Part shown: piece after piece, positions 1-25,276 of the stretch
Position numbering within the stretch: the first letter of the stretch is position 1
Layout: each line of letters starts with the position of its first letter
Virus record (IMG/VR): IMGVR_UViG_2531839482_000004
Reading direction: 5' to 3' (one strand)
DNA length: 34,661 nucleotides
From: a virus
Taxonomy: Duplodnaviria > Heunggongvirae > Uroviricota > Caudoviricetes
Translations under genes and position numbers: made by a program
The notes under the pieces: generated by a model
Told to the model about the DNA's origin: nothing
The model's database searches: none
Seen by the model: only the letters and a program-made list of their open reading frames with translations

Positions 1-307
<307 letters not shown>

Positions 308-359
308 TTAGGTGGCGAGATGCAAAAGTTAGTCAGAATGCGATTCAGGAGGTTTAAGG

Positions 360-806: not shown

Positions 807-1333
807 TTAAGCATAAATCAGAAACACCAAAAGAAGTTAGAGATTGCTGGCAAACGCCGCTTTGGCTTTTTGATGCACTGGATATTGAGTTTGGATTCTG
901 TCTGGATTCGGCAGCGAGCGACAAAAATGCTCTGTGCGCTCACTGGCTAACTGAGGCCGACGACGCGCTCAATTCTGAGTGGGTAAGCCACGGTGCAATC
1001 TGGAATAACCCACCGTACAGCAATATCAGGCCGTGGGTGGAAAAAGCCGCTGAGCAGTGCATACAACAGCGACAGACGGTAGTTATGCTTGTGCCAGAGG
1101 ATATGTCAGTCGGATGGTTCAGCAAGGCTCTGGAGAGTGTCGACGAAGTTCGCATTATCACTGATGGACGGATTAATTTTATCGAACCATCGACAGGGCT
1201 GGAGAAGAAGGGAAACAGCAAAGGCTCCATGCTGCTGATTTGGCGACCGTTCATCAGTCCTCGACGGATGTTTACTACCGTATCCAAAGCGGCATTGATG
1301 GCGATCGGGCAGGGCGTCAGGAGGGCGGCATGA
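803..1333 (+). CDS. phage N6-adenine DNA methyltransferase
   Basis: 176-aa ORF with NPPY catalytic motif ([10 protein letters not shown]); ATGA overlap with ninB stop; occupies the lambda ninC/ninD position. Confidence 0.8.
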
Positions 1334-1506
1334 GGCGACAGCGACGAAGTTTCACCGACATCATCTGCGAAAACTGCAAATACCTTCCAACGAAACGCTC
1401 CAGAAATAAACGCAAGCCAATCCCAAAAGAATCTGACGTAAAAACCTTCAATTACACAGCTCACCTGTGGGATATCCGGTGGCTAAGATATCGTGCGAGG
1501 AAATGA
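1330..1506 (+). CDS. ninE: NinE protein
   Basis: [58 protein letters not shown] closely matches lambda NinE; ATG at 1330 overlaps the methyltransferase stop. Confidence 0.85.
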
Positions 1507-1508
1507 CA

Positions 1509-1850
1509 ATGGATTATTCACAGTTAAGTGATTTTGAAATTAACAGAATGGTAGGAGACATAATTTTTAAAGGACTTTGGGCAAGTAAACCGGAAACATC
1601 AGGGAATAACACCAACAAATGGTATTACGGAAATGCTGATACAACTTTTGAGCCATTAAATCATTTGCCTGACTACTGCAATGATCCGAGCGCTTCATGG
1701 CCGATTATTGAGAAATACAGGATTTCTATCTTAGACCAGTTAACTGAATGGTGTGTGGATGCAAAAGGCGTAAGCCCAATATTTGATACCAGACCTCTCC
1801 GCGCCGCCATGATTGTCTTTCTCCTGATGCAGGAGGCCAATAATGCTTAG
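1509..1850 (+). CDS. hypothetical nin-region protein
   Basis: ORF 1467-1850; ATG at 1509 ([17 protein letters not shown]...) has GAGG 8 nt upstream. Lower GC than neighbours; no family recognised with confidence. Confidence 0.5.
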
Positions 1851-2037
1851 CCTATCTCAATCCCTTCAATACCTGAAAGGAAGCATAGAGCGGGCTTCAA
1901 TGTGCACAGAGTGGATTCTATCTAGGTTTAGCGCATACAGAAGATTGCCGGTAAAGGGCATGCCAAGCAAGTCGATGCTGCATATGCAAAAGAATACGCG
2001 CTGGAAGGGATGGCGAGAACACAGGTTATCTGGCTGA
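1843..2037 (+). pseudogene. NinF-like N-terminus fused to unrelated sequence; a ybcO-like 3' remnant lies in another frame
   Basis: First ~20 aa ([21 protein letters not shown]) resemble lambda NinF, then diverge. In a different frame 1990-2060 encodes ...[28 protein letters not shown], resembling the C-terminus of DLP12 YbcO and ending at the rusA start. Confidence 0.4.
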
Positions 2038-2056
2038 AAGAGGGGGTTATTAAGGC

Positions 2057-2419
2057 GTGAATACCTACAGCATCACATTCCCCTGGCCTCCGAGCAATAA
2101 TCGCTATTACCGCCATAATCGCGGGCGCACGCACGTCAGCGCAGAGGGGCAGGCATACCGCGATAACGTCGCCCGAATCATTAAAAACGCAATGCTGGAT
2201 ATCGGCCTGGCTATGCCTGTGAAAATCCGCATTGAGTGCCACATGCCGGATCGCCGTCGCCGTGACCTGGATAATCTGCAAAAAGCCGCTTTTGACGCAC
2301 TCACTAAAGCAGGTTTCTGGCTGGATGATGCTCAGGTCGTTGATTACCGCGTTGTGAAGATGCCTGTTACCAAAGGTGGGAGGCTGGAACTGACCATCAC
2401 CGAAATGGGGAATGAATGA
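2057..2419 (+). CDS. rusA: Holliday junction resolvase RusA
   Basis: 120-aa translation [50 protein letters not shown]... is essentially the E. coli DLP12 RusA sequence. Confidence 0.92.
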
Positions 2420-2642
2420 TGTTTGAGTTTAATATGGCAGAACTTCTTCGCCACCGCTGGGGGCGTCTGCGCTTATATCGTTTCCCCGGTTCTGTTTTGA
2501 CCGATTACCGAATACTGAAGAATTACGCCAAAACACTGACAGGAGCAGGAGTATGAAGTCAGAGATAACAATCAACTAATACTGTTTTGTTGATTTTTGC
2601 TTGTAATTGGCGTTCTGGTCTGAGTTTTTGTGGAGTAAGTTG

Positions 2643-3026
2643 ATGCGTGATATTCAGATGGTTCTTGAGCGTTGGGGAGCGTGGGCGGCTAATAATCATG
2701 AAGATGTGACCTGGTCGTCCATTGCCGCCGGTTTTAAGGGATTAATTCCTTCAAAAGTAAAATCTCGCCCGCAATGTTGTGACGATGACGCGATGATCAT
2801 TTGCGGGTGCATGGCCCGTCTGAAAAAGAACAACAGCGATTTGCACGATTTATTAGTAGATTATTATGTAGTCGGTATGACATTCATGTCACTGGCAGGG
2901 AAGCATTGCTGCTCTGATGGTTATATCGGGAAAAGGTTACAAAAGGCTGAGGGCATAATTGAAGGGATGTTAATGGCATTAGATATCCGGTTAGAGATGG
3001 ATATCGTTGTTAATAACTCTAATTAA
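2643..3026 (+). CDS. quuD: late-gene antiterminator Q (DLP12 QuuD-like)
   Basis: [34 protein letters not shown]...[18 protein letters not shown] matches recalled QuuD; ATG 2643 has GGAG 9 nt upstream (track ORF starts earlier at TTG 2607). Confidence 0.85.
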
Positions 3027-3052
3027 TACGCCAATTATTTACTAAAAGTTAT

Positions 3053-3084
3053 TAAAAATGGGGCGTTGAAACGCCCCCAAAAAT
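3053..3084. terminator. GC stem-loop flanked by A/T tracts between Q and nmpC
   Basis: ggggcgttgaaacgcccc (3060-3077) with aaaaat upstream; on the minus strand the hairpin is followed by a T-rich run, consistent with termination of the leftward nmpC transcript. Confidence 0.4.
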
Positions 3085-3111
3085 AAAGGGTAATATATAA
3101 CAGAAGGTTTG

Positions 3112-3200
3112 TATAGTTAGAAGCAAGGTTGTGCTTCTAAAGGAAGTGGCTTGAGGGAGCCACTTATATGTTGGGGAGGCAAAGCCTCCCACAACATATC
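3112..3200. repeat. cluster of three stem-loops immediately 3' of nmpC
   Basis: Inverted repeats agaagca...tgcttct (3115-3136), agtggc...gccact (3137-3157) and atatgttggggaggc/gcctcccacaacatat (3166-3197). Confidence 0.4.
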
Positions 3201-3214
3201 TTTTAGTAATCAAA

Positions 3215-4297
3215 TTAGAACTGGTAAACCATACCTACAGCAACGATATCATCGGTAGCAACGCCAGATGCTTTCGTGAAATCGCTCTTATCAATCAGGT
3301 TGATTTTGTAGTCAACAAAAGTGGACATATTTTTGTTGAAGTAATAGGTTGCACCTACATCAACATATTCAACCAGGTCCTGATCACCCCAAACACCCAA
3401 GTCTTTTCCTTTAGAATGCAGGTAAGCAACGGATGGACGCAGGCCGAAGTCGAACTGATATTGTGCAACAGCTTCGAAGTTTTGTGCTTTGTTGGCAATA
3501 TGGTTATTACCAAAAACAGTCATGTTCTGGGTTTCAGAATAGGTGGTGGCCAGATAGATGTTGTTCGCATCATATTTCAGACCAGCTGCCCATACTTCAG
3601 CATTTTGACCAGAAGCATTCAGACCGTTGTTACCGTAGATAACCTGATTATTAGTGCGATCAGATTTAGCATAGGTTGCACCCACGCCGAATCCTTCATA
3701 CTCATAAGTAGTTGAGAAACCGAAACCATCGCCATTAGCTTCAGTTACTTCATTTCGGTCATTTTTGCCCTGATACTGAGCTGCAAAGTTCAGGCCATCA
3801 ACCAGACCAAAGAAGTCGTTGTTACGATAAGTTGCAACACCTGTGGTGCGACCAGTCATGAATACATCTGTTTGGGTCCAGGTATCGCCACCGAATTCTG
3901 GCAGAACGTCAGTCCACGCACCGATGTCGTATGCTACACCGTAGTTACGGCCGTAATCGATTGAGCCGTAGTCACCGAATTTCAGGCCTGCAAATGCAAG
4001 ACGGGTTTTGTCTTTGGAGGAACCTTGAGATTCAGCGCGGTTGCCTTTGAATTCATATTCCCACTGACCGAAACCAGTCAGTTGATCGTTGATTTGGGTT
4101 TCACCTTTGAAGCCAAGACGGGCATAAGTAGTATCACCATCATCTGCATCATTAGAGGAGAAGTAGTGCTTAGCATTAACTTTCCCGTACAGATCCAGCT
4201 TGTTACTGTCTTTATTATAAATTTCAGCTGCCTGAGCAGACATCGCCATCAGTACTGATGCAGCTACAGCAGAAATTGCCACTGTTAATTTTTTCAT
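3215..4297 (-). CDS. nmpC: outer membrane porin, OmpC/NmpC family (intact)
   Basis: 360-aa ORF with signal peptide [23 protein letters not shown], porin motifs and C-terminal ...VGMVYQF; opposite strand to the phage late genes, as for nmpC in DLP12. Confidence 0.9.
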
Positions 4298-7106: not shown

Positions 7107-7326
7107 CGGGTCCTTTCCGGCGATCCGACAGGTTACGGGGCGGCGACCTCGCGGGTTTTCGCTATTTATGAAAAATTTCCGGTTTAAGGCGTTTCCGTTC
7201 TTCTTCGTCATAACTTAATGTTTTTATTTAAAATACCCTCTGAAAAGAAAGGAAACGACAGGTGCTGAAAGCGAGCTTTTTGGCCTCTGTCGTTTCCTTT
7301 CTCTGTTTTTGTCCGTGGAATGAACA
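7107..7326 (+). other. helper prophage cos site (cosQ, cosN, cosB)
   Basis: gggtcctttccggcgatccgacaggttacg / GGGCGGCGACCT / cgcgggttttcgctatttatgaaaa... matches the lambda genome termini; cosN 12-nt cohesive end GGGCGGCGACCT at 7138-7149, followed by cosB R-elements (gtttccgttc, aaaggaaacgacagg, tgtcgtttcctttctc) up to the Nu1 start. Confidence 0.92.
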
Positions 7327-7846
7327 ATGGAAGTCAACAAAAAGCAGCTGGCTGACATTTTCGGTGCGAGTATCCGTACCATTCAGAACTGGCAGGAACA
7401 GGGAATGCCCGTTCTGCGAGGCGGTGGCAAGGGTAATGAGGTACTTTATGACTCTGCCGCCGTCATAAAATGGTATGCCGAAAGGGATGCTGAAATTGAG
7501 AACGAAAAGCTGCGCCGGGAGGTTGAAGAACTGCGGCAGGCCAGCGAGGCAGATCTCCAGCCAGGAACTATTGAGTACGAACGCCATCGACTTACGTGTG
7601 CGCAGGCCGACGCACAGGAACTGAAGAATGCCAGAGACTCCGCTGAAGTGGTGGAAACCGCATTCTGTACTTTCGTGTTGTCGCGGATCGCAGGTGAAAT
7701 TGCCAGTATTCTCGACGGGCTCCCCCTGTCGGTGCAGCGGCGTTTTCCGGAACTGGAAAACCGACATGTTGATTTCCTGAAACGGGATATTATCAAAGCC
7801 ATGAACAAAGCAGCCGCGCTGGATGAACTGATACCGGGGTTGCTGA

Positions 7847-7872
<26 letters not shown>
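7327..7872 (+). CDS. nu1: terminase small subunit Nu1
   Basis: 181-aa translation matches recalled lambda gpNu1 except for one or two substitutions. Confidence 0.95.
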
Positions 7873-11553
<3,681 letters not shown>

Positions 11554-13235: not shown

Positions 13236-13257
13236 GGCCGCCTGTGCGGCTTTTTTT
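13236..13257 (+). terminator. stem-loop plus T-tract between D and E
   Basis: gccgcctgtgcggc followed by ttttttt; weak terminator or attenuator-like structure. Confidence 0.35.
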
Positions 13258-13270
13258 ACGGGATTTTTTT

Positions 13271-13546
13271 ATGTCGATGTACACAACCGCCCAGCTGCTG
13301 GCGGCAAATGAGCAGAAATTTAAGTTTGATCCGCTGTTTCTGCGTCTCTTTTTCCGTGAGAGCTATCCCTTCACCACGGAGAAAGTCTATCTCTCACAAA
13401 TTCCTGGACTGGTAAACATGGCGCTGTACGTTTCGCCAATTGTTTCCGGTGAGGTTATCCGTTCCCGTGGCGGCTCCACCTCTGAATTTACGCCGGGTTA
13501 TGTCAAGCCGAAGCACTTAGCATGGCTTTCTGAGGCTTTCGTGTAG
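13271..13546 (+). pseudogene. E: major capsid protein gpE, N-terminal fragment (codons 1-82) interrupted by island insertion
   Basis: MSMYTTAQLLAANEQKFKFDPLFLRLFFRESYPF...TPGYVKPKH matches lambda gpE 1-82, then reads into island DNA (LAWLSEAFV*) and stops at 13546. Confidence 0.92.
13506..13515 (+). repeat. attL core AGCCGAAGCA (left island junction inside E)
   Basis: Identical 10-mer occurs at 24486-24495 at the other junction; sequence outside the pair is contiguous lambda E. Confidence 0.75.
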
Positions 13547-13678
13547 TTGCTGGTTTTTACACTTAATCTTTTGATAATAAAGAATAAGTTTATCTGGCGC
13601 TTTCACTGAATTTTCCTCGTTATCTGTGTGTTGCAATCATCTCTGTATTGCAGCTTGTATTGCTTTTTGGGGCTAAAA

Positions 13679-14914
13679 ATGGCTGGCGAGAACAAACTGA
13701 GCGACAAAGCGCTTAAAGGATATCTGGGGAAACCCAGAGAAAAGCAGATCACCATTGCTGATGGAAAGGGGCTTTCTATTCGTGTGAGTACTAAAGGGGC
13801 TGTGAGCTTTGTTTTCTTCTACAGGTTAGCAGGTGGCCGGGCTGCTCCGGTCTGGCTAACGTTGGGTAAATATCCTGATATGTCACTCAAACAGGCAAGG
13901 GAAAAGCGCGACGAGTGCCGTGGTTGGTTGGCTGACAAACGTGATCCGCGTATCCAGATTAAGATTCAGGCTGAAGAACGCTTAAAGCCGGTCACAGTGG
14001 AGGATGCACTAAATTACTGGTATGAAAATTACTGTAAGGTGCGTCGTAAAACTCATGCTGTAACGCTTGGCAGATTTCGAAAGCATATCTTTCCCTATAT
14101 CGGTCATTTGCCCGTAAATGACACTCACCTATATGAATGGCTGGACTGTTTTGACCGAATTAAACGTAATGCACCAGTTATGGCGGCGTATGTTTTTTCT
14201 GACACTAAATTAGCTCTTCGTTTTTGTCGGGTACGCCAGTACGCGACGTGTGATGCTTTAAAGGATTTGCGCATGAGTGATGTGGGGCAGATTGCAGGTA
14301 AGCGGGATCGGGTTCTGGATGAAGCCGAACTGGGCCAGCTCTGGAAGGCAATTTTTGTCGAGCCTGATTTAAAACTAATGTCTGAATACACGCGAAAAAT
14401 GTTTGTGCTTTGTACAGTATTTGGATGTCGAATGAGTGAAGCCCGATTATCTGAATGGAGTGAATGGGATCTCGAAAGTTGGGTTTGGACTGTACCAAAA
14501 GATCACTCAAAAACTGGTGTTGAAATCGTCAGACCAGTACCTGAAATTCTACGACAGTGGGTAACGGATGTTCACGAAGAGACAAAACATACTGGTTATG
14601 TGCTGGGAAGTCTGCGAATTAGAGAAAGCGTAAGCAAGATTGGGGGGAAAATCGGTAAACGTTTGGGCCATGAAAAACAATGGTCACTACACGACCTTAG
14701 AAGAACGCTATCTACTCATCTAAGTGATCTCGGTGTTGAATTTTATGTAGTAGAACAACTGTTAGGCCATGCGCTACCTGGCGTGGCAGGGGTTTACAAC
14801 AGGAGTACGTTTATGGCTAAAAAACTGGATGCTCTGGAACTCTGGACTACATATCTCAATAGCATCGCAGCTGCTGATTCAAAAGTGACAATCCTCAAAC
14901 AAAAGGCTGGTTAA
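13679..14914 (+). CDS. int: tyrosine integrase, P4-type with N-terminal arm-binding domain
   Basis: N-terminus LSDKALKGYLGKPREKQITIADGKGLSIRVS...LGKYPDMSLKQAREKRDE (DUF4102-like); C-terminal catalytic region with HDLRRT and LGH...GVY motifs; first gene inside the left junction. Confidence 0.88.
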   Translation: MAGENKLSDKALKGYLGKPREKQITIADGKGLSIRVSTKGAVSFVFFYRLAGGRAAPVWLTLGKYPDMSLKQAREKRDECRGWLADKRDPRIQIKIQAEERLKPVTVEDALNYWYENYCKVRRKTHAVTLGRFRKHIFPYIGHLPVNDTHLYEWLDCFDRIKRNAPVMAAYVFSDTKLALRFCRVRQYATCDALKDLRMSDVGQIAGKRDRVLDEAELGQLWKAIFVEPDLKLMSEYTRKMFVLCTVFGCRMSEARLSEWSEWDLESWVWTVPKDHSKTGVEIVRPVPEILRQWVTDVHEETKHTGYVLGSLRIRESVSKIGGKIGKRLGHEKQWSLHDLRRTLSTHLSDLGVEFYVVEQLLGHALPGVAGVYNRSTFMAKKLDALELWTTYLNSIAAADSKVTILKQKAG

Positions 14915-14915
14915 C

Positions 14916-15143
14916 ATGAAAAAAATGGCAATTGTTGATAAAAAGGGTCTGGAGTACATTCCTAACATTGACCGAATGATCCGTGAGAAAGAATGTCGGG
15001 AGCTAACCACTCTTGCGAACAGCACACGCTGGAAGCTGGAGAAGGAAGGAAAATTTCCTAAGCGGATCAAGATTGGCGCTACTGCGGTAGCTTATCGTCT
15101 CTCCGAAGTTCAGGCATGGATTAAGGGAGAATGGAGTAATTAA
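14916..15143 (+). CDS. alpA: AlpA-family HTH regulator / excisionase-like protein
   Basis: 75 aa; ATG overlaps int stop; ...IKIGATAVAYRLSEVQAWIKGE resembles the AlpA HTH pattern; position immediately after int as in E. coli PICIs and P4-like elements. Confidence 0.75.
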   Translation: MKKMAIVDKKGLEYIPNIDRMIREKECRELTTLANSTRWKLEKEGKFPKRIKIGATAVAYRLSEVQAWIKGEWSN

Positions 15144-15161
15144 ATAATAAGGTATTTCGAT

Positions 15162-15983
15162 ATGACAATGTGTGTTATTTGGAAGTCAGTTGATGGAACT
15201 ATTTATGCCGCCACAGATTCTCGACTGAGCTTTGAAGAAAAAAAGTTAGATCGTTGCGTTAAAATATCCCGAATCACATGTCTTTTACATGAGCCTAGTG
15301 ATGCAGTAGATACAAGTAAGATACTTGTTGATAAGCGTGAGATTGCTACATTATTCTGTGGAGGCTTTACAAATGCCTATATCATCAAGGAGAGCCTTAC
15401 TGAGATTTTAAATAAAATAGTTCTCATGAGGGAATACTCCGGCGTGCCCTTTTCGGAAATTATAGATATAGCGTTTTCCATTTATGAAGATACATCAAGA
15501 GATATGTTTGCATCATTAATGGACCAACGATTTGGATGTGTTTTTTACATGATAAGTTACTGCCCTGTATATAAGGAAATGCAAGCATTTAAATTTGAAT
15601 TCAAAATAAATGAAAACGGTATTAACTATTATAAATCTAAACTTTTTGAAGATCGTAACTATGAGGTTAATGGAAGTGGGGTGAGGTACTTGGAACAAAA
15701 TCATCGTATTGAAGATCTAGTTAAAGAAGCTTATCAGAAGAATAAATACACACCACTTCTAGATATACTTGAGTCCGTAATTAATGATGACGACTGTGAC
15801 TCTGTTGGAGGTGCAATGCAATACATTTCATGTAATAAAGATAGACTAAAATTGTGTTGTCATATGTTATTTGAAGAAAATAATCATAAGTATATGAAAG
15901 CTGGGGTGGACTTAAATGAACTCAATGAGAAGTTTATACCTTCTGGTTTGTTTTTTGAGACAGATGCAATCATCAAAAGATAA
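15162..15983 (+). CDS. hypothetical protein, AT-rich cargo gene (possible Ntn-hydrolase-like fold)
   Basis: 273-aa ORF with markedly lower GC than flanks; N-terminus MTMCVIWKSVDGTIYAATDSRL loosely resembles the proteasome/HslV-type N-terminal nucleophile region, with Cys where HslV has Thr. Similarity is weak and unverified. Confidence 0.5.
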   Translation: MTMCVIWKSVDGTIYAATDSRLSFEEKKLDRCVKISRITCLLHEPSDAVDTSKILVDKREIATLFCGGFTNAYIIKESLTEILNKIVLMREYSGVPFSEIIDIAFSIYEDTSRDMFASLMDQRFGCVFYMISYCPVYKEMQAFKFEFKINENGINYYKSKLFEDRNYEVNGSGVRYLEQNHRIEDLVKEAYQKNKYTPLLDILESVINDDDCDSVGGAMQYISCNKDRLKLCCHMLFEENNHKYMKAGVDLNELNEKFIPSGLFFETDAIIKR

Positions 15984-16292
15984 ACGATAACCGACTTTGA
16001 TTGTGATAATTTTATCAAGATTATGATGAATGCTGCAGTATATCTAACATGCTGCAGTTAACTCAATTTGTATTATCGCTAATATTTTTAATAACAAGGA
16101 TGTTTATTGCTTTTTTATTTGAGAGTGAACGTCTAACCATTGTTGTTCTTAGTTCTCATGGAGAGATTGGAGCTTAAAATACGCAATGTTTTGAAATCAG
16201 CGCAACTATATTCCGTAATTGTTCTTTGTCGTTCTTGCGTGGCACGGTGATACACCTCTCATGTCGGTTGTTTTTTTGAACGCAGAAACATA

Positions 16293-16320
16293 AAACAAAG
16301 GCGACCGGGATGGTCGCCAG
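16293..16320 (-). terminator. rho-independent terminator of the leftward island operon
   Basis: ggcgaccgggatggtcgcc hairpin; on the minus strand it is followed by tttgtttt, downstream of the 16387 stop. Confidence 0.5.
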
Positions 16321-16386
16321 TGGCATAACACTAAAATTGAGCGTATTCAGAATACCAAGTGTCGGCTGGTGGACAATGGAATCAGT

Positions 16387-16743
16387 TCAATATTTAGGTG
16401 GTTCAACAAGAGCGTTTATCATTGCTCTCAAATTATCGCGAACACTTATCCAAGTCTGTTCTGCTCGTTCTAACTCATTAGTGTACAGCTTTAATGTTTT
16501 ATCTATGCCATATGTGGCTATTAAATTTATAGCTTCTTGTAACTTTTCGGGATTATTCCTTCTTGGGGGAGTGAATATACCGCGGATTTTTCCGGTAATT
16601 AAAGCTTTACGGTGTCTACATAGAATACCTTTACTTCCTGCTGGACAATTACAAGTCATGATTAGCGAGCCAGAATCGTTTGATACAGTGACTATGTATA
16701 CATCCAAACTACTGCTACTTGTTGCGAAGAATTCGTATTTCAT
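16387..16743 (-). CDS. SWIM-type zinc-finger protein, hypothetical
   Basis: 118-aa ORF with CxC-x7-CxH motif (TCNCPAGSKGILCRH); AAGGAG 8 nt upstream of ATG 16743; preferred over the overlapping plus-strand ORF 16310-16750. Confidence 0.6.
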   Translation of the reverse strand: MKYEFFATSSSSLDVYIVTVSNDSGSLIMTCNCPAGSKGILCRHRKALITGKIRGIFTPPRRNNPEKLQEAINLIATYGIDKTLKLYTNELERAEQTWISVRDNLRAMINALVEPPKY

Positions 16744-16770
16744 GTGTTAGCTCCTTGACTTCAATTATTC

Positions 16771-16965
16771 TTATCCTTTTGGTTCAATACCGCGCCGTAG
16801 CAGCTCTTTGCGCCCTAACTCTTTAAGCCAGTTGGCAAGGCTTACCCCATCGTTACTGGCTTCGTTATCAAACTGCTCCTTCAATTCAGGAACTATGCGC
16901 ATATGGAACGGTGGGGCCTTTCCTGTGCCTTTTTGTTTTTTATCGCGCTTAATAACCGTTGACAT
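16771..16965 (-). CDS. small ribbon-helix-helix-like DNA-binding protein (candidate island regulator)
   Basis: 64 aa; ...FHMRIVPELKEQFDNEASNDGVSLANWLKELGRKEL has a beta-strand/helix/helix pattern like Arc/MetJ-type proteins; start codon abuts a palindromic operator-like site. Confidence 0.55.
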   Translation of the reverse strand: MSTVIKRDKKQKGTGKAPPFHMRIVPELKEQFDNEASNDGVSLANWLKELGRKELLRRGIEPKG

Positions 16966-17026
16966 GTGTACACCTATAGCGTTATGTTTTTATTCGATAG
17001 GTGTACACCTTAACATGTGTGCATTT
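16959..17026. promoter_or_regulatory. divergent control region with inverted repeats (operator candidate)
   Basis: GTGTACACCTAT (16966-16977) and its exact reverse complement ATAGGTGTACAC (16997-17008), 19-bp spacer; related ACATGTGT boxes at 16962 and 17014; TTGACA at 16959-16964. Confidence 0.5.
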
Positions 17027-17300
17027 AAAAACGCAACGCCCCGCAGTGCGGGAACACATGCAGGGCGTCTAACCACCAACGATAGCAACAGTATCGAGGT
17101 AGCTATGAGAAATCATCCCACACACCCGCAAGGGCGGGACTCGCACAACCTGAATAAATTCACTTGGCGCTTTATCGCCCTGAGTGCGGCTAAACCGCGC
17201 ATGCTTACCATCGTGGTCACCAGCGAGCAGGAAGACCGCCAGCAATCCCCAACTGGCTGCGTGATGATATTCGCCGCCCGTATTCGTCAGGAGGTGTGCC

Positions 17301-17525
17301 ATGAATGATCTTTATTTTAAAGTGCTGACACATGCTGAAAACGCGCTCGTTTGTGGCAAAAATATGCGAGAAATCTTATCAACCTGGCTTGATGGGACAA
17401 CAAATGCGGAACACGATGAACGGGATGCTAATTTAGCTGGAGCGTTAATTACGTTACTTGATCCTGTCATCAAAGAGCTGGATGAAGCTATAAAAATACA
17501 CGACCAGAGCTATACCGGAGAATAA
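17301..17525 (+). CDS. hypothetical protein
   Basis: 74-aa ORF, AGGAGG 8 nt upstream of ATG; first gene of the rightward operon leading to the primase. Confidence 0.6.
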   Translation: MNDLYFKVLTHAENALVCGKNMREILSTWLDGTTNAEHDERDANLAGALITLLDPVIKELDEAIKIHDQSYTGE

Positions 17526-17528
17526 AAA

Positions 17529-17816
17529 ATGAAAAATAAATTTTCTGGCTTTATTGCCAGCGGTCAAACTCATTCAAAAATCAGCCTTGGGGATATTTTC
17601 AAAGACAGCTATGGCTATCGGGTAAAGATTATTTCGGTTGATGATCGTCGTGTCTCTTATTTGCGTGATGGTTATGATTTTGAATGTGTTATGCCGCGTC
17701 AGCAGTTCGAAAGAGATTTCATTCTGGTAAAAAATTGCAAGACAGATAATCAGAGGCGTGCCGCAGGCTATATCCGTAAAATTCGGGCAATGTTAGTTGC
17801 CGGAGGTAACAAATGA
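17529..17816 (+). CDS. hypothetical protein
   Basis: 95-aa ORF, GGAGA upstream; tightly coupled to the primase gene (ATGA overlap). Confidence 0.6.
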   Translation: MKNKFSGFIASGQTHSKISLGDIFKDSYGYRVKIISVDDRRVSYLRDGYDFECVMPRQQFERDFILVKNCKTDNQRRAAGYIRKIRAMLVAGGNK

Positions 17817-19633
17817 AACGTGCTCCGAACTTAAAATACCAACCGCGCGACAAAATGACGGAAGTCATCATTTTTGCTGGCAGTGATGCCTGGAGCCATG
17901 CAAAAGAATGGAATGAATGGGCAGGTAAGCATATTGCAGCAGATGATACACCACCAGTCATTCTGGGTACGGAACAACTGGAAAACCTGGATGATATGCA
18001 AATTATCGATGAAGGCCGTCATTATGTGCGTGTTTATCGTGCCGGAAAGATTGCAGAGAAAAGTCTGACGAAGGTTGCGACATTACTTGCTATTGCAGGC
18101 GTAAAGGAAGCACGTTGTTACCGTAGCTTTGTTGATCGAGAGCCTGAAGACTGGACTCCGCGCCTTGTCGGCCTAAAAGCTGAAGCGGAGCATGGGGAAA
18201 GTCTGGTGATTGAACTGCCAGTGAAGAAGGCAGAGCGCAAAAATGACGAGCGTGCTTCATCTTTGGCGTTGAATCAGATGGGGGCCAGCCAGCGCGGTGA
18301 AGTTCTCCTTGCACATTACGGCGGTGAACTGGCAATCAATGCCGACTCTGACACCGTTCATCATTACAACGGCGTTGTATGGGAGCCGGTTCAGGATAAA
18401 GAGTTACAGCGTGCTATGGCGCAGATTTTCATTGATGCGGAGATCAGCTATTCGCAGAACGCTATTAAATCGGCGGTAGATACCATGAAGTTAAGTTTGC
18501 CTGTAATGGGGAATACAGCCCGTAACCTGATTGGATTCAGTAACGGGGTATTTGATACCAGAACTGGTAATTTTCGGGAGCATAACAAAAACGACTGGTT
18601 GTTAATTGCCAGTGAATTACCTTTCAGCCCACCAGCAGAGGGGGAAACGCTGGCAACACATGCGCCGAATTTCTGGAAGTGGTTGCGCCGTTCGGTGGCT
18701 GAGAATGACCGCAAGGCAGATCGCGTACTGGCGGCATTATTCATGGTGCTGGCGAACCGGTACGACTGGCAGTTATTCATTGAGGTAACAGGGCCGGGGG
18801 GAAGTGGTAAAAGTGTGATGGCGGAGATTTGCACCATGCTGGCGGGTAAGGCTAATACAGTATCAGCAAGCATGAAGGCGCTGGAAGATGCAAGGGAACG
18901 TGCGTTAGTGGTTGGCTTTTCGCTGATTATCATGCCGGATATGACCCGCTACGCTGGTGATGGGGCAGGGATTAAGGCCATTACAGGCGGTGACAAGGTG
19001 GCAATTGACCCGAAACACAAAGCCCCCTATTCAACGCGTATTCCGGCAGTAGTGCTGGCGGTTAACAATAACGCCATGTCATTCAGTGACCGCAGCGGGG
19101 GGATCTCACGTCGTCGGGTGATATTCAATTTTTCGGAAGTTGTACCGGAGAACGAACGCGATTCGATGCTGGCGGAAAAAATAGAAGGTGAGCTGGCGGT
19201 AGTGATTCGTCATCTGCTTACAAGGTTTGCTGATCAGGACGAAGCCAGACGCCTGTTATATGAGCAGCAGAAATCTGAAGAAGCACTGGCGATAAAGCGA
19301 GAGGGGGATTCGCTGGTGGACTTCTGCGGTTATCTCATGGCATCGGTAATGTGTGATGGCCTGTTAGTGGGTAATGCTGAAATTGTGCCATTCAGCCCAC
19401 GCAGGTATCTCTATCATGCCTATCTGGCTTATATGAGGGCACATGGGTTTGGTAAACCTGTAACACTGACGCGCTTCGGTAAAGATATGCCGGGGGCAAT
19501 GGCGGAATATGGCAGGGGGTATATGAAACGGAAAACGAAGCACGGTTTGCGTTCAAACGTGACACTGACGGAGGAATCAGAAGACTGGATGCCATCATGT
19601 GTATCGGTCACTAATGACGATAGCAAAAATTAA
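17813..19633 (+). CDS. primase/helicase-type replication protein (P4/PICI pri-rep family, D5-like NTPase)
   Basis: 606 aa; Walker A GPGGSGKS; overall architecture like P4-family primase C-terminal/helicase proteins; GGAGG RBS. Confidence 0.8.
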   Translation: MKRAPNLKYQPRDKMTEVIIFAGSDAWSHAKEWNEWAGKHIAADDTPPVILGTEQLENLDDMQIIDEGRHYVRVYRAGKIAEKSLTKVATLLAIAGVKEARCYRSFVDREPEDWTPRLVGLKAEAEHGESLVIELPVKKAERKNDERASSLALNQMGASQRGEVLLAHYGGELAINADSDTVHHYNGVVWEPVQDKELQRAMAQIFIDAEISYSQNAIKSAVDTMKLSLPVMGNTARNLIGFSNGVFDTRTGNFREHNKNDWLLIASELPFSPPAEGETLATHAPNFWKWLRRSVAENDRKADRVLAALFMVLANRYDWQLFIEVTGPGGSGKSVMAEICTMLAGKANTVSASMKALEDARERALVVGFSLIIMPDMTRYAGDGAGIKAITGGDKVAIDPKHKAPYSTRIPAVVLAVNNNAMSFSDRSGGISRRRVIFNFSEVVPENERDSMLAEKIEGELAVVIRHLLTRFADQDEARRLLYEQQKSEEALAIKREGDSLVDFCGYLMASVMCDGLLVGNAEIVPFSPRRYLYHAYLAYMRAHGFGKPVTLTRFGKDMPGAMAEYGRGYMKRKTKHGLRSNVTLTEESEDWMPSCVSVTNDDSKN

Positions 19634-19644
19634 ACTTATGGAAT

Positions 19645-19800
19645 AACTGTTCACCAAACTATTCACCGTTCACCTTTTTGATTATTTATTGAGCTTCAAG
19701 GGTGAACAGTGGTGAACAGTTGGTGAATAGTTTTTGTGAAACTGTTCACCCATTAACATTATGAATTAAAAGAGAAAATATCAAAAGGTGAACAGGTGAA
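19645..19800. repeat. iteron cluster, candidate island origin of replication
   Basis: About nine copies of GGTGAACAG / CTGTTCACC (and GGTGAAT variants) in both orientations around an AT-rich core (19756-19786), immediately downstream of the primase gene. Confidence 0.75.
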
Positions 19801-19846
19801 GGGTTAAAACGCAAAAATTTTAATTTACTGCTGTGAGATAAAGCCT

Positions 19847-20092
19847 ATGACAGCGAAGCACACAAAAAAATCACAATCGCACGCCCTTGATTTGACGGAA
19901 CACTGGTTAAGGGTGTCGATAAAAATCATCGACCGCAACGCCGGGGAAGGATACGCGAAAGCACATCCCGAACTGATTAGCGCATTCATGACAACGGCGG
20001 CTGCAAACTTTGCCACTCTGACCGAACGGGAGATTGCTGAAGCGGAGGAAGTGACAACAATCAATATTAAGTCCGGAGAGCAGGCAGCATGA
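19847..20092 (+). CDS. hypothetical protein
   Basis: 81-aa ORF between the origin and the ssb-like gene; no family recognised. Confidence 0.5.
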   Translation: MTAKHTKKSQSHALDLTEHWLRVSIKIIDRNAGEGYAKAHPELISAFMTTAAANFATLTEREIAEAEEVTTINIKSGEQAA

Positions 20093-20538
20093 CGGCGCAA
20101 ATATCAGTTTACGGGCGGTTGGTGGACGACCCGCAGACAAAACAGACCAGCAAGGGCACCCCCATGACGCTGGCGCGTATGGCGGTATCACTGCCCTGCA
20201 GTCAGTCGGATGACGGTCAGGCGACGATGTGGTTATCTGTCCTGGCGTTTGGCAGACAAGCCGACGCGCTGGCAAAGCATCACAAAGGCGAACTCCTGAG
20301 CGTGGCGGGTAATATGCAGGTGAGCCAGTGGACTGGACAGAACGGTGAAACGCGGCAGGGCTGGCAGGTTATCGCAGACAGCGTAATCAGTGCGCGAACG
20401 GTGCGACCGGGCGGCAAAAAAGGTCAACAGGGTCAGGCTACTGACGCACTGAACAGAGCAAAACAACAGGTAGATCAGCAAGGAAGCCATCCACCAGTGG
20501 GAGATAATGAGCAATGGGGAGATGATATTCCGTTTTAA
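20089..20538 (+). CDS. ssb: single-stranded DNA-binding protein (SSB-like)
   Basis: 149 aa; OB-fold-like N-terminus, Gly/Gln-rich linker, C-terminal acidic tail ...WGDDIPF as in SSB proteins. Confidence 0.75.
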   Translation: MTAQISVYGRLVDDPQTKQTSKGTPMTLARMAVSLPCSQSDDGQATMWLSVLAFGRQADALAKHHKGELLSVAGNMQVSQWTGQNGETRQGWQVIADSVISARTVRPGGKKGQQGQATDALNRAKQQVDQQGSHPPVGDNEQWGDDIPF

Positions 20539-20755
20539 ATATTGCCAATAAAAAAGGCCGGAAAAAAATAAATTTTCCGGCATGCTACATAAATCCCGAC
20601 CAAAGGGAGTGAAGATATTAACACTAATTATCCGCGCTGAAGTTGTTATCCCAAAACTTTATACAACATTGCACTCGGTTGCATGTATTCGCATGACAAA
20701 TATCGGTGATAGCATATATCCACAATTATTTTTAATGAATGCAAAGAGGATGCGT

Positions 20756-21796
20756 ATGGTTGATTTATATTCGCCTACCCAGCTTGTACAGGTGGTTAAT
20801 GCTGTAGATGTACAAAAACAACTAAATGCGTTGTTTACCAGTTTGTTTTTTACTCGCTCGGTAATGTTTGAATCGCGCGATATTATTCTTGATACAATCG
20901 ACGATCCAAATATCCCAATTGCAGCGTTTTGTTCTCCTATGGTGGGTAGTAAAGTTTCACGTGACGAAGGGTACGAATCAAAAACAATTCGTCCAGGCTA
21001 TATGAAGCCGAAAAGCAGCATTGATCCAAATAAGTTAGCTGTGCGCCCTGCTGGTGTATCACCTGAGCAATACAATGCTTTTGGAGCGCGTAATATTAAA
21101 GTTAAACAGGCGATTGTAAATCAGGCTAAATCTATTCGTGCACGTATTGAATGGCTTGCCGTTCAGGCAATCACAACGGGGAAAAATATCATTGAGGGCG
21201 ATGGTATTGAACGTTATGAGCTGGACTGGAATATTAAACCACAAAATATCATCACTCAGTCTGGCGGTGCTGAGTGGTCAGGTAAGGATAAAGAAACTTT
21301 TGATCCAAATGATGATATTGAGAGCTACGCAGAATTTAGTGAGGGCGTCACTAATATCATCATTATGGGCGGTAATGTATGGAAGAAATACCGTTCATTC
21401 AGAGCGATAAAAGAGGCTCTGGATACCCGTCGTGGTTCTAATTCCGAACTGGAAACGGCCCTTAAAGACCTTGGTGATTCGGTGAGTTTTAAAGGGTATA
21501 TGGGCGATGTTGCGATTGTTGTATACAGCGGGCGTTATACCGACGAGGACGGAACTGAAAAACATTTCCTTGATCCTGATTTGATGGTGCTTGGCAATAC
21601 GGCTCTTCAGGGGATTGTCGCCTATGGCGGTATTCAGGATCCGGAGCTAATCCGAATGGGGCTGACTAAAGCCGAACTTGCACCGAAAAACTATATTGTG
21701 CCTGGTGATCCGGCTATTGAATATGTGCAGACACATTCAGCACCACAGCCAATACCGGCCCGCATCAATCGTTTTGTTACCGTTCGCATTGGCTAA
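20756..21796 (+). CDS. island-encoded major capsid protein, divergent paralog of lambda gpE
   Basis: 346 aa; shares RPGYMKPK, NIITQSGGAEWSGKDKETFDPNDDIESYA, ALDTRRGSNSELETALKDLG, AIVVYSG, MVLGNT with helper gpE but is diverged throughout; AGAGGA RBS 6 nt before ATG 20756. Confidence 0.88.
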   Translation: MVDLYSPTQLVQVVNAVDVQKQLNALFTSLFFTRSVMFESRDIILDTIDDPNIPIAAFCSPMVGSKVSRDEGYESKTIRPGYMKPKSSIDPNKLAVRPAGVSPEQYNAFGARNIKVKQAIVNQAKSIRARIEWLAVQAITTGKNIIEGDGIERYELDWNIKPQNIITQSGGAEWSGKDKETFDPNDDIESYAEFSEGVTNIIIMGGNVWKKYRSFRAIKEALDTRRGSNSELETALKDLGDSVSFKGYMGDVAIVVYSGRYTDEDGTEKHFLDPDLMVLGNTALQGIVAYGGIQDPELIRMGLTKAELAPKNYIVPGDPAIEYVQTHSAPQPIPARINRFVTVRIG

Positions 21797-21805
21797 GGGG
21801 GAGCA

Positions 21806-22147
21806 ATGGCTACTCATTACACTGAACTCATGGCTGGCACTGAAGCACTGGTGACTACGCTGGGGATATTTTCAGCTAATAAAGGGGTAATTCCTGCATT
21901 TACGCCACTGATGCAGGAAGATGCAACAGGTGCACTGGTGGTATGGGATGGTTCGAGCGTAGGTAAAGCGGTTTATGTTTCCGCTGTACAAATCGACACC
22001 GCGAAAAAAACACAGGCTCAGGTCTATAAGACAGGTGTCTTAAATGTTGATGCTCTGAACTGGCCTGAGTCTGTAAAAGAACTGTCAGTAAAGATTGCAG
22101 CGTTTGTTGGCTCAGGTATTTCTGTTCAGCCGCTGGCTCGTGTGTAA
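21806..22147 (+). CDS. island-encoded decoration protein, divergent paralog of lambda gpD
   Basis: 113 aa; shares TPLM, LVVWDG, YKTGV, WPE, AAFVGSGISV with gpD; lies downstream of the capsid gene (order E-like then D-like, opposite to lambda). Confidence 0.75.
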   Translation: MATHYTELMAGTEALVTTLGIFSANKGVIPAFTPLMQEDATGALVVWDGSSVGKAVYVSAVQIDTAKKTQAQVYKTGVLNVDALNWPESVKELSVKIAAFVGSGISVQPLARV

Positions 22148-22158
22148 AGGGGGATACA

Positions 22159-22542
22159 ATGCAGAATGATTACAATGACCTTAAGCCAATTGCCGAAATG
22201 ATGTACCCGAATCCAGCTGTAGAGGAATTAAAAGCTATCGCTGACAAAATGTGTTTAAGCGAGCGCCTTGTTGATATGAATCAGGTGATGGAAATTACAA
22301 CCCTGAGTCGGCGTACACTGCTAAACCTTGAGGCTAGTGGAGAGTTCCCGGAGCGTGTGCAGGTTACGGAAGGGCGTAAGGCCTGGTATTTAAGTGAAGT
22401 GATCGACTGGATAAATAATATTCCTCGCGCTTCTGAATATTGCCGCGTACCTGTCCCAAAAAAGCCAGATGCGGCGCTATGCCTCAAGATTGAGCGTGTA
22501 CGCCGCAATGCACGGGATGGTCGCTATAAGCTGATTGGTTGA
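22159..22542 (+). CDS. AlpA/MerR-like HTH protein with N- and C-terminal extensions
   Basis: 127 aa; core MEITTLSRRTLLNLEASGEFPERVQVTEGRKAWYLSEVIDWI fits the AlpA-type HTH pattern. Confidence 0.6.
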   Translation: MQNDYNDLKPIAEMMYPNPAVEELKAIADKMCLSERLVDMNQVMEITTLSRRTLLNLEASGEFPERVQVTEGRKAWYLSEVIDWINNIPRASEYCRVPVPKKPDAALCLKIERVRRNARDGRYKLIG

Positions 22543-22565
22543 TGAAATTAGGGCCCGCTCTGGCT

Positions 22566-22787
22566 GGCGGGTCCTTTCCGGCGATCTGACAGGCTACGGG
22601 GCGTCAGGCGCGCAGTTTTTCGCTATTTGTGAAAATTTTCCTGTTTAAGGCGTTTCCGTTCTTCTTCGCCGTAACTTAATGTTTTTATTAAAAACACCCC
22701 CTAAAAAGAAAGGAAACGACAGGTGCTAAAAACAGGCTTTTTGGCCTCTGTCGTTTCCTTTCTCTGGTTTTGTCCGTGGAATGAACA
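22566..22787 (+). other. island cos site (cosQ and cosB conserved, cosN divergent)
   Basis: Aligns base-for-base with helper cos 7107-7326, but the cosN position reads GGGCGTCAGGCG (helper GGGCGGCGACCT), with further changes just downstream. Confidence 0.8.
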
Positions 22788-22853
22788 ATGGAAGCCAACA
22801 AAAAGCAGCTGGCTGACATTTTCGGTGCGAGTATCCGTACCATTCAGAACTAG
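22788..22853 (+). pseudogene. Nu1-paralog N-terminal segment ending in an in-frame amber codon (codon 22)
   Basis: MEANKKQLADIFGASIRTIQN then TAG where helper Nu1 has TGG (Trp). Confidence 0.7.
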
Positions 22854-22865
22854 CAGGAGCAGGGA

Positions 22866-23339
22866 ATGCCCGTTCTGCGAGGCGGTGGCAAGGGTAATGA
22901 GGTGCTTTATGACTCTGCCGCCGTCATAAAATGGTATGCCGAAAGGGATGCTGAAATTGAGAACGAAAAGCTGCGCCGGGAGGTTGAAGAACTGCGGCAG
23001 GCCAGCGAGGCAGATCTCCTGCCAGGGACTATTGAGTATGAACGCCATCGACTTACGCGTGCGCAGGCCGACGCACAGGAACTGAAGAATGCCAGCGAAA
23101 CAGGTGAGGTAATTGACACTGCATTTGCGACTTATGCTTTGTCGAAATTAACTGGGGAAGTTGGAGCAATCATTGATAGTCTTCCACTTGCGATCTGTCG
23201 ACAGTTTCCTGGCATGGAAAAACGGTATCAGGACTTCATTAAGATGGAGGTCAGTAAAGCATTTATTCGAGCTTACCAGATCTCAGATAACATTCCAGAT
23301 ATGGCTGAAAGGTATATCAAGGATAATCAGCGAAGTTAA
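22866..23339 (+). CDS. N-terminally truncated terminase small-subunit paralog (Nu1 residues 27-end; divergent C-terminal domain)
   Basis: Starts at the codon equivalent to Nu1 Met27, where a GAA->GAG change creates a GGAG Shine-Dalgarno 6 nt upstream; first ~80 aa near-identical to Nu1, last ~75 aa replaced by AT-rich divergent sequence. Confidence 0.7.
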   Translation: MPVLRGGGKGNEVLYDSAAVIKWYAERDAEIENEKLRREVEELRQASEADLLPGTIEYERHRLTRAQADAQELKNASETGEVIDTAFATYALSKLTGEVGAIIDSLPLAICRQFPGMEKRYQDFIKMEVSKAFIRAYQISDNIPDMAERYIKDNQRS

Positions 23340-23445
23340 AACAAATGAAACCATAGGTAGGAAGAGTGCTTAGGTGGTTCTTTGTTGCTTAAAAGTCGCC
23401 AGTAAAACTGGCGATAGATTTTATTTGTCAAAAGCATTTGACCTT

Positions 23446-24351
23446 TTAAGGTAGTGGTACTATGGATATTTTTCTGTCGTTCCCAAATGAACTTTTAAAT
23501 AATTTCGCTCTTGGATACATCTTAACTAGTGATGCGACTTCATCGAACTCGCTGGCATCAAAAAGAGGACCAAGTATTACAGATTTTAACTCAAAAGGGT
23601 GAAATTTTAAGTCGCTATATTGACCAGTGCTATTTGGCCTAGCGTAGGTTGAAATTCTCCACTCTCTTTCATATGCCCATTCTTCTGTTTTTATGAATAT
23701 TATCTCATTATTGATATATTCAATTGACTTATTGTCTGGCATGAAAAGCAACTCGGCCATCCCTTCAGCAGTGTGAGTTAGAGGCATTTCATCTGTGTAT
23801 TTCATAGGTTTGGCTATTAACCAAGCGCTATCCAGAAAGTCTACACAATCAAATTCGATAACTATACCTTTATATTTATCGGCATAGTGATTCCACATAG
23901 GAGTGATTATAGGGCTCTCAGATAAACACAAAATCCTTCTGTTATTAAGCATTCCTCGCCAGACATCTTTCATTTCTTGTATTGCCGCAGGAGCGCCAAT
24001 CCCAACTGGTGGAATGTTTACCATTTCTTGAAATCTTTCAATTAATCCTGCGGGTATGCCTAAAGGAAATGACTTTTGGAAATCACTTAGCATTGTTCTA
24101 ATTCTAGGGTTTAAATTTTGTATGTCTTCTCTGGGGGTAATCAACTCCGCTATTAACTTGCGGGCTAAAGCTTTGCCAATATTAATTTCGTTAATACCAG
24201 GCATAACTTCTCTTGGAACATCAAAAGGGTCATTAAATAGGACCGGAGAACTCCATCTAAGGCTGCATGAATCAAGAACAATTTTCGCGGTATTCAACGA
24301 CATATACTTATAAAATGTTGAGCGTTCATGCATTCTGTTGGGTGAGCGCAT
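23446..24351 (-). CDS. hypothetical protein, DUF2971-like, AT-rich cargo gene
   Basis: 301 aa; N-terminal FYKYMSL...LRWSSPVLFNDPFD and WAYEREWRI motifs as recalled for DUF2971 proteins; low GC; GAGGA RBS; last gene before the right junction. Confidence 0.55.
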   Translation of the reverse strand: MRSPNRMHERSTFYKYMSLNTAKIVLDSCSLRWSSPVLFNDPFDVPREVMPGINEINIGKALARKLIAELITPREDIQNLNPRIRTMLSDFQKSFPLGIPAGLIERFQEMVNIPPVGIGAPAAIQEMKDVWRGMLNNRRILCLSESPIITPMWNHYADKYKGIVIEFDCVDFLDSAWLIAKPMKYTDEMPLTHTAEGMAELLFMPDNKSIEYINNEIIFIKTEEWAYEREWRISTYARPNSTGQYSDLKFHPFELKSVILGPLFDASEFDEVASLVKMYPRAKLFKSSFGNDRKISIVPLP

Positions 24352-24485
24352 AGATTCCTCTTGTTAAATGAGTGATGGTTTTCATCCATGTATTGCACGT
24401 TGTATTGCATTCAAGGATTTTCCATTTCAATTCTATAGCTAAAACGTAATCAAATCATTCACATCCTTTCATATTTGACTCATGT

Positions 24486-24495
24486 AGCCGAAGCA
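24486..24495 (+). repeat. attR core AGCCGAAGCA (right island junction)
   Basis: Identical to 13506-13515; E coding sequence resumes in frame immediately afterwards. Confidence 0.75.
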
Positions 24496-25276
24496 TGAGG
24501 TGAATCCGCAGATGACCCTGCGTCGCCTGCCGGATGAAGATCCGCAGAATCTGGCGGACCCGGCTTACCGCCGCCGTCGCATCATCCTGCAGAACATGCG
24601 TGACGAAGAGCTGGCCATTGCTCAGGTCGAAGAGATGCAGGCAGTTTCTGCCGTGCTCAAGGGCAAATACACCATGACCGGTGAAGCCTTCGATCCGGTT
24701 GAGGTGGATATGGGCCGCAGTGCGGCGAACAACATCACGCAGTCCGGCGGCACGGAGTGGAGCAAGCGTGACAAGTCCACGTATGACCCGACCGACGATA
24801 TCGAAGCCTACGCGCTGAACGCCAGCGGCGTGGTGAATATCATCGTGTTTGATCCGAAAGGCTGGGCGCTGTTCCGTTCCTTCAAAGCCGTCAAGGAGAA
24901 GCTGGATACCCGTCGCGGCTCTAATTCCGAGCTGGAGACAGCGGTAAAAGACCTGGGCGAAGCGGTGTCCTATAAGGGGATGTATGGCGATACGGCGATC
25001 GTCGTGTATTCCGGACAGTACGTGGAAAACGACGTCAAAAAGAACTTCCTGCCGGACAACACGATGGTGCTGGGGAACACTCAGGCACGCGGTCTGCGCA
25101 CCTATGGCTGCATTCAGGATGCGGACGCACAGCGCGAAGGTATTAACGCCTCTGCCCGCTACCCGAAAAACTGGGTGACCACCGGCGATCCGGCGCGTGA
25201 GTTCACCATGATTCAGTCAGCACCGCTGATGCTGCTGGCTGATCCTGATGCGTTCGTGTCCGTACAACTGGCGTAA
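24486..25276 (+). pseudogene. E: major capsid protein gpE, C-terminal fragment (codons ~80-341)
   Basis: ...KHEVNPQMTLRRLPDEDPQNLADPAYRRRRIILQNMRDEE... to ...FVSVQLA matches lambda gpE; preceded in frame by a TAG from island DNA. Confidence 0.92.

Follow-up and report, generated by a model that had tools for sequence, protein, structure and literature searches.

An amber codon in the nu1 gene of a capE-type helper-embedded PICI, probably a tolerated null allele of a modular satellite terS

The window examined here, meaning the entire stretch of 34,661 nt, is a lambda-like prophage with an embedded satellite. It holds two genes of the Nu1 family of small terminases: one is intact and belongs to the helper prophage, and the other lies in the satellite island and is interrupted by an amber codon. 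The question raised by this locus is whether the interrupted copy has gained a use as a shortened protein that is restarted downstream of the stop codon, or whether it is simply a broken gene that the satellite can do without. The first-pass annotation favored the former possibility. It described an island-borne second copy of nu1 beside its own cos, a Shine-Dalgarno motif created for a restart at Met27, a replaced C-terminus, and a product that could interfere with or redirect packaging by analogy with Ppi and Rpp. The presence of a second copy next to its own cos is borne out by the cosN and cosB elements found upstream of it; the remaining proposals are taken up below beside the evidence that bears on each of them. 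Table 1 collects the features of the window on which the argument depends.

Table 1. Features of the window relevant to the island copy of nu1 (HTH, helix-turn-helix).
Feature	Position	Strand	Remarks
Helper prophage nu1	7327..7872	+	Intact, 181 aa; comparison copy
Satellite island	13506..24495	+	~11-kb helper-embedded PICI, capE type, within prophage gene E; assigned from core repeats, Pfam content and the 11capE description (PMC10111431)
Conserved satellite late module	20756-22542		E-like capsid (346 aa), D-like decoration (113 aa) and AlpA-family (127 aa) genes
Helper-matched cassette	22560..23093	+	cos plus nu1 codons 1-102; ~97% DNA identity to helper; coding part 55% GC
Island cosN, 12-nt cohesive-end equivalent	22599..22610	+	GGGCGTCAGGCG; helper has GGGCGGCGACCT at 7138-7149
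Island cosB	22651..22763	+	Lambda-type motifs R3 (22651-22662), R2 (22707-22718, inverted) and R1 (22752-22763)
Island nu1, 5' end	22788..22853	+	Codons 1-21, then amber codon 22 (TAG 22851-22853)
Shine-Dalgarno-like motif	22855..22859	+	AGGAG, 6 nt before the Met27 ATG; includes GAG codon 24
Open 157-aa ORF	22866..23339	+	Met27 to stop; possible restart product without helices alpha1-alpha2 of the winged HTH
Satellite-type Nu1 C-terminal half	23094..23339	+	Codons 103-183; 41% GC; 40% identical to lambda Nu1
Terminator-like hairpin, then T-run	23395..23415	+	Downstream of island nu1
DUF2971 gene	23446-24351	minus	Downstream of island nu1

The island belongs to the capE type of helper-embedded PICI, a known kind of element. 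A 10-bp att core (AGCCGAAGCA) is present at both of its ends (13506-13515 and 24486-24495), and between them the island splits the capsid gene E of the prophage into a 5' fragment at 13244-13546 and a 3' fragment at 24500-25276. Since the core is found at both ends, excision would restore E. The prophage genes run in the order nu1 (7327-7872), A (7847-9772), and then the portal, protease and D genes. Within the island are genes for a tyrosine integrase, a D5-type primase, SSB, an E-like capsid protein, a D-like decoration protein and an AlpA-family protein, together with cos, the nu1-like gene and the DUF2971 gene; Pfam matches are obtained for the integrase, the D5-type primase, Phage_cap_E, HDPD and Phage_AlpA. 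The island follows the PICI gene order of int, AlpA/HTH gene, variable zone, primase/SSB and late zone, and the RefSeq annotation of sister loci agrees with this description.

The HE-PICI family '11capE', elements of ~11 kb at the gene E site, has been described by Tommasini, Mageeney & Williams (2023, PMC10111431). The window island resembles this family in its insertion at the same gene E site with the 10-bp core, in its size, in the order of its zones including a late E-like capsid gene, and in its island-type cosN, and its D-like/AlpA-like segment is 100% identical to that of the 11capE element of strain NRG857c. It differs from the type element, described as lacking terS and left with 12 nu1 codons, in that it keeps a full-length nu1 frame with an amber codon. 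Nu1 is absent from the text and supplements of the HE-PICI paper (PMC10111431). Of 5426 complete E. coli genomes, about 395 have the D-like/AlpA-like module, inserted at several different sites. Its 127-aa AlpA-like gene, located upstream of cos, was considered as a candidate Rpp and rejected, as there is no sequence similarity to Rpp and the sole PDB match is an AlpA-family protein.

Past cos and nu1, the right end of the island is a cargo hotspot that holds DUF2971 in the window and HEPN plus DUF262 in NRG857c (L019 15737-17453). The same hotspot in relatives holds either FRG plus DUF3892 or a 398-aa protein (L013 8001-9355; L010 8594-9790). In some lineages, nu1 has been worn away or eliminated by the exchange of cassettes at this hotspot. 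Defects are also seen in some of the helpers that host such islands: TerL carries a frameshift in strain A37 (L025 2421-4348), and the helper protease gene of strain 95-3322 has an internal stop (L007 1256-2572).

When translated, positions 22788-23339 give a Nu1 homolog of 183 codons that is interrupted by a stop at codon 22; the helper has TGG there, so that the TGG-to-TAG change originally reported at this codon is upheld by comparison with helper nu1. With codon 22 read as W, the frame matches Phage_Nu1 (PF07471) over positions 1-162 of the 164 in the model (E = 8e-82, 273 bits), and the tryptophan at this position is invariant in 16 aligned Nu1 homologs. The island gene shares with lambda gpNu1 and with nohA/nohD this Pfam family, a nearly identical stretch covering the N-terminal 98 residues (lambda Nu1/TerS, PDB 6HN7 and 1J9I), and a location directly after cosN and the cosB sites R3-R2-R1, which stand immediately upstream of the ATG at 22788. 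It differs from lambda gpNu1 in its C-terminal half, which is only 40% identical, in the stop at codon 22, which leaves the N-terminal winged HTH interrupted, and in having no large terminase gene beside it; the only terL in the window is that of the helper (7847-9772).

The island and helper cos regions differ at their cohesive ends, where six of the 12 positions of GGGCGTCAGGCG depart from the helper's lambda-type GGGCGGCGACCT and the bases just to the right differ as well. The island variant is common to sister islands, NRG857c 11capE included; elsewhere, the cohesive end is of the lambda type in A37 and reads GGGCGTCGACCT in two divergent satellites (L010 and L013). The R3, R2 and R1 motifs are the same in island and helper (helper 7190-7201, 7246-7257 and 7291-7302). 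In the helper Nu1 itself, codon 91 (7597-7599) encodes Cys (RLTCAQ), a position occupied by Arg in the other aligned Nu1 homologs with the exception of P0109, which has Lys.

The two halves of the island gene have different affinities. In successive 30-nt windows, the island and helper copies agree at 28-30 of 30 positions up to nt ~300 and at 11-20 of 30 thereafter, which places a breakpoint at codon ~102. The GC content of the N-terminal half (55%) is like that of the helper, while the C-terminal half has 41%, against 44% for the island as a whole and 51% for the helper's equivalent. Over its ~81 residues, the C-terminal half aligns to lambda Nu1 at 40% identity, and it is nearly invariant among the 32 E. 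coli records in which it occurs. A search of 50,697 phage records returned no C-terminus closer than the lambda-type one at 40%. On the basis of these records, borrowing of this half from a known phage is rejected, and so is the phage 21 C-terminus, since phage 21 is present in the searched collection. By comparison with the PDB, no solved structure spans the C-terminal half of the island Nu1.

Strain A37 provides an informative counterpart (L006 12001-12530). There, the backbone and the C-terminal half are those of the window island, but cosB and the DNA-binding half are of the phage 21 type, and the helper resident in A37 matches this 21-type cassette at 98.1% identity across its cos-nu1 5' region (L025 1650-2250). 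The TerS of the A37 helper is itself a mosaic, with a 21-type N-terminus and a lambda-type C-terminus. The crossover falls within ERHRLTRAQADAQELKN, a motif conserved throughout these proteins. Since the C-terminal half is island-like in GC content and is kept together with a 21-type cassette in A37, the exchangeable part is the cassette of cos and the DNA-binding domain. The C-terminus had initially been read as the replaced portion of the gene. It is indeed AT-rich and divergent from that of the helper, but it is a homologous Nu1 domain and, judged from composition and from A37, it is the satellite-native half, so that the mosaic arose in the direction opposite to the one proposed: the recent import is cos plus the N-terminal DNA-binding half, both matched to the helper. 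An arrangement of this kind suggests recombinational retuning of the packaging specificity of the satellite to its resident helper.

Across this satellite family, the Nu1-like gene is as a rule intact and under purifying selection. The divergent satellites L010 and L013 share the late module of E-like, D-like and AlpA-like genes and cos, followed by an intact Nu1-like gene of 182-184 aa with a related C-terminus. Between the window nu1 and those of L010 and L013, dS is saturated and dN is about 0.2; for the pair L010 and L013, dN/dS comes to 0.30 over the whole gene and to 0.24 in the C-terminal half. The low dN/dS across satellites argues that satellite terS, its C-terminal half included, is a selected gene at the level of the family. 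The sampled D-like/AlpA-like satellites at other integration sites encode a Nu1-family TerS of 180 aa. Its DNA-binding half differs, as does the accompanying cosB, and the closest phage relative of this protein is N15 gp1 (47.6%).

Loss of the gene has occurred repeatedly. The NRG857c 11capE element keeps the island cos but has only 12 nu1 codons before the HEPN/DUF262 cassette, a junction present in 28 genomes. In the FCI1 type, found in 20 genomes, cos is kept and nu1 is wholly replaced. In an ENA metagenome contig with the amber-type cos haplotype (L018 9756-9960), a further deletion of 80 bp takes out codons ~22-48, with them the TAG site as well as Met27, and causes a frameshift. In this contig, the gene caller joined the remainder of nu1 to an upstream out-of-frame GTG ORF. 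On these counts, variants that lack a working terS outnumber the 15 records in which the gene is intact.

A sequencing or assembly error in the window would account for a single-base difference, and nothing beyond that difference speaks for it. This explanation can be dismissed. The exact 60-mer around the TAG is found in 17 independent complete E. coli genomes from several continents, with humans, a frigatebird, a swan and a bullfrog among the sources, and in three IMG/VR contigs, and the ORF starting at Met27 is present on 162 public contigs. The codon is therefore real. PGAP labels the TAG-bearing nu1 genes as having an 'internal stop', so that RefSeq already flags them as pseudogenes. The stop is carried by 17 of the 32 complete-genome records and the other 15 are intact, the island alleles of L004, L005, L006, L007, L008 and L009 being full length. 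Among public contigs, the exact 157-aa ORF occurs on 162 and the isogenic intact protein, P0122, on 156, with further intact island Nu1 variants on 139 and 31.

The TAG is a recent G-to-A change of single origin. The amber allele is separated from that of L007 (strain 95-3322, P0122) by this one change in the gene plus one synonymous SNP specific to the window, and all eight TAG loci examined, whether in complete genomes or in the window, share one cos haplotype. The TAG is found on at least four island backbones, which differ in their variable and replication zones. Between L015 and L016, identity is 100.0% across the TAG islands and only 94.8% in the helper flanks, and in the IMG/VR contig L028 a TAG island lies beside an E gene only 67% identical to that of the window, which represents a third, very divergent helper background. 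The occurrence of TAG islands in dissimilar helpers implies that the islands have moved between helpers and that full-length island TerS is evidently not needed for this mobility. In a scan for island-only packaged contigs, the three IMG/VR contigs with the TAG 60-mer were all of the prophage type with helper DNA attached, a result that carries no information on packaging. In strain PSJ-16 (L001 12618-15645), a remnant of a TAG-bearing island persists in a degraded Qin-like cryptic prophage at the Qin locus, where a deletion fuses the helper gene A to the island D-like gene.

Downstream of the amber codon, the frame stays open from Met27, and an ORF restarted there would indeed lack the helix-turn-helix, as was originally predicted. 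With the limits of the secondary structure elements taken from the published account of the DNA-binding domain (PMC6739421) and from PDB entries 1J9I and 6HN7, the 157-aa product that may be made would be without the HTH but would keep the wing, the dimerization helix alpha3, the linker and the C-terminal half. Where the helper has GAA as codon 24, the island has GAG (22857-22859), which gives CAGGAGCAGGGAATG ahead of the Met27 ATG at 22866. The predicted pairing with the anti-Shine-Dalgarno sequence is -6.6 kcal/mol with GAG and -5.5 with GAA, a gain of ~1 kcal/mol, and the native nu1 start pairs at -3.3; a value of -6.0 or better is reached by 14.5% of the ATGs in the window. The distance from the TAG to the ATG is 12 nt, and termination at the TAG followed by reinitiation at Met27 is plausible.

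The history of the GAG codon, however, does not connect it to the amber. GAG occurs together with TGG in the intact island alleles of L007, L008 and L009. The intact helper nohD of NRG857c has both codons too and departs from the 60-mer of the window at the TAG base alone; many other nohA/nohD genes are alike in this respect. Since GAG is present in intact alleles, it must be older than the TAG and is not a compensatory change tied to it. Thus, the first-pass annotation located a genuine AGGAG motif at a suitable distance from Met27, but the motif did not arise with the amber: the Met27 Shine-Dalgarno sequence was not created for restart.

Could the amber allele nevertheless be functional? Termination and reinitiation might yield an HTH-less Nu1 that co-assembles with helper Nu1, binds gpA, or both, and in this manner interferes with or biases packaging. 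In keeping with this proposal are the open frame preceded by its AGGAG motif, the short gap between stop and start, and the identity or near-identity of residues 27-102 to helper Nu1; lambda TerS, moreover, is known to dimerize through its N-terminal domain (PMC6739421), and the allele is frequent, on several backbones and in several helpers. The age of the Shine-Dalgarno variant counts against it, as does the isogenic intact allele one base away, which is equally common. One derivative of the amber haplotype has deleted Met27, and sister islands have lost the whole C-terminal half, so that there is no convergent retention of a form devoid of the DNA-binding domain. Because the island relies on the same cosB sites as the helper, a protein that poisoned helper Nu1 would harm the island's own packaging too. 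A functional restart is for these reasons considered unlikely. A more specific version, in which Nu1 27-183, with its dimerization region identical to that of the helper and its satellite-specific C-terminal half, acts as a decoy without a DNA-binding domain that titrates helper Nu1 or gpA, and in which the frequency and spread of the allele reflect positive selection and not drift, is doubtful; if it were true, that selection would account for the presence of the allele on four or more island backbones and in three or more helper backgrounds. Ppi of SaPIs is a small protein that binds the TerS of the helper and blocks it; its likeness to the island product is an analogy drawn by the first-pass annotation. 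The Ppi- or Rpp-like interference envisaged there finds no positive evidence here, given the equally common intact allele, the deletion of Met27 in one derivative and the loss of the gene in sister islands.

Alternatively, full-length TerS could still be produced through a host amber suppressor or UAG read-through, in which case the stop would lower the dose without abolishing it. The stop is followed by C, and in E. coli the context TAGC favors termination only weakly; the remainder of the gene is also intact. Read-through levels are normally very low, though, and the carriers are diverse wild isolates in which suppressors are not expected. A search of the 34.7-kb window for tRNA genes found none of any kind, and hence no suppressor tRNA nearby. 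Even if a residue were inserted, the invariance of W22 in the 16 homologs implies that Gln, Tyr or Lys at this position would probably damage the recognition helix. Continued synthesis of the full-length protein is accordingly regarded as very improbable.

The explanation that best accommodates these observations is that the gene is the satellite's own Nu1-family terS, that it is redundant in this lineage, and that it has been knocked out here by the single G-to-A change from TGG to TAG; the amber is probably a tolerated null allele. With the same cosB R sites and the same DNA-binding domain on both sides, helper Nu1 would recognize the island cos and assemble the terminase there. The island terS would then add no recognition specificity in this lineage, making it redundant and its null alleles tolerable. 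Redundancy is deduced here from the identity of cos and DNA-binding domain between island and helper, and tolerated nulls would explain the amber, the 80-bp deletion in one derivative and the full replacement of the gene in sister islands alike. The amber would be one such allele, young and either drifting or hitch-hiking, and the 157-aa restart protein, if made, would be a by-product.

Some observations sit less easily with a tolerated null. The amber allele is common, amounting to about a third to half of its allele family, and it has spread over several backbones and helpers as a beneficial allele would also do. Nearly all carriers retain an uninterrupted 157-aa ORF, and the Shine-Dalgarno sequence at Met27 is moderately good, better than that of the native start. 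The derived changes in the TAG lineage comprise four nonsynonymous substitutions (E144G, N180K, F140L and A72T) and one synonymous substitution, too few for dN/dS to separate neutrality from constraint; the allele is too young for selection tests, and the 4 versus 1 changes fit both alike.

Comparison with known packaging systems of satellites helps to define what the island gene is. Some PICIs of Gram-negative (GN) hosts contain a terS homolog (Fillol-Salom 2018, PMC6092414). As with these homologs and SaPI TerS, the island encodes a small terminase without a large one and presumably uses the TerL of its helper. In contrast to them, the DNA-binding domain and cosB of the window island are of the helper type (~97% DNA identity) and not satellite-specific, and the product is also truncated. 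A recognition site and DNA-binding domain distinct from those of the helper, as in the SaPI type, are missing from the window island but occur in sister PICIs such as L020; the resemblance of the island gene to SaPI-type TerS is one of family only. Owing to its helper-type DNA-binding domain and cosB, the island protein would be incapable of discriminating island from helper DNA. Rpp of EcCICFT073 works differently: its own winged HTH heterodimerizes with the TerS DNA-binding domain and retargets it to a PICI cosB that has no phage R sites (Fillol-Salom 2019, PMC6739421). Rpp and the island gene are alike in being encoded beside a PICI cos and in acting on, or resembling, the DNA-binding domain of Nu1. 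They differ in that the window restart product would be without an HTH and the window island cosB has phage R sites. The similarity to RppC is marginal (E = 0.053) and confined to the DNA-binding domain. Judged from its predicted domain content, the restart product is not Rpp-like.

Taken alone, the amber is a routine segregating null allele. The locus does correct the picture of the 11capE family, since the type element was described without terS and yet many relatives carry a terS of the Nu1 family. This terS is modular: the half comprising cos and the DNA-binding domain tracks the helper, being of the lambda type or the 21 type, while the C-terminal half is satellite-specific and conserved. 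The natural allelic series of intact, amber, 80-bp deletion and fully replaced forms could help to establish the contribution of a small terminase to its satellite, and the modularity itself suggests a testable route by which cos satellites may retune their packaging specificity to new helpers.
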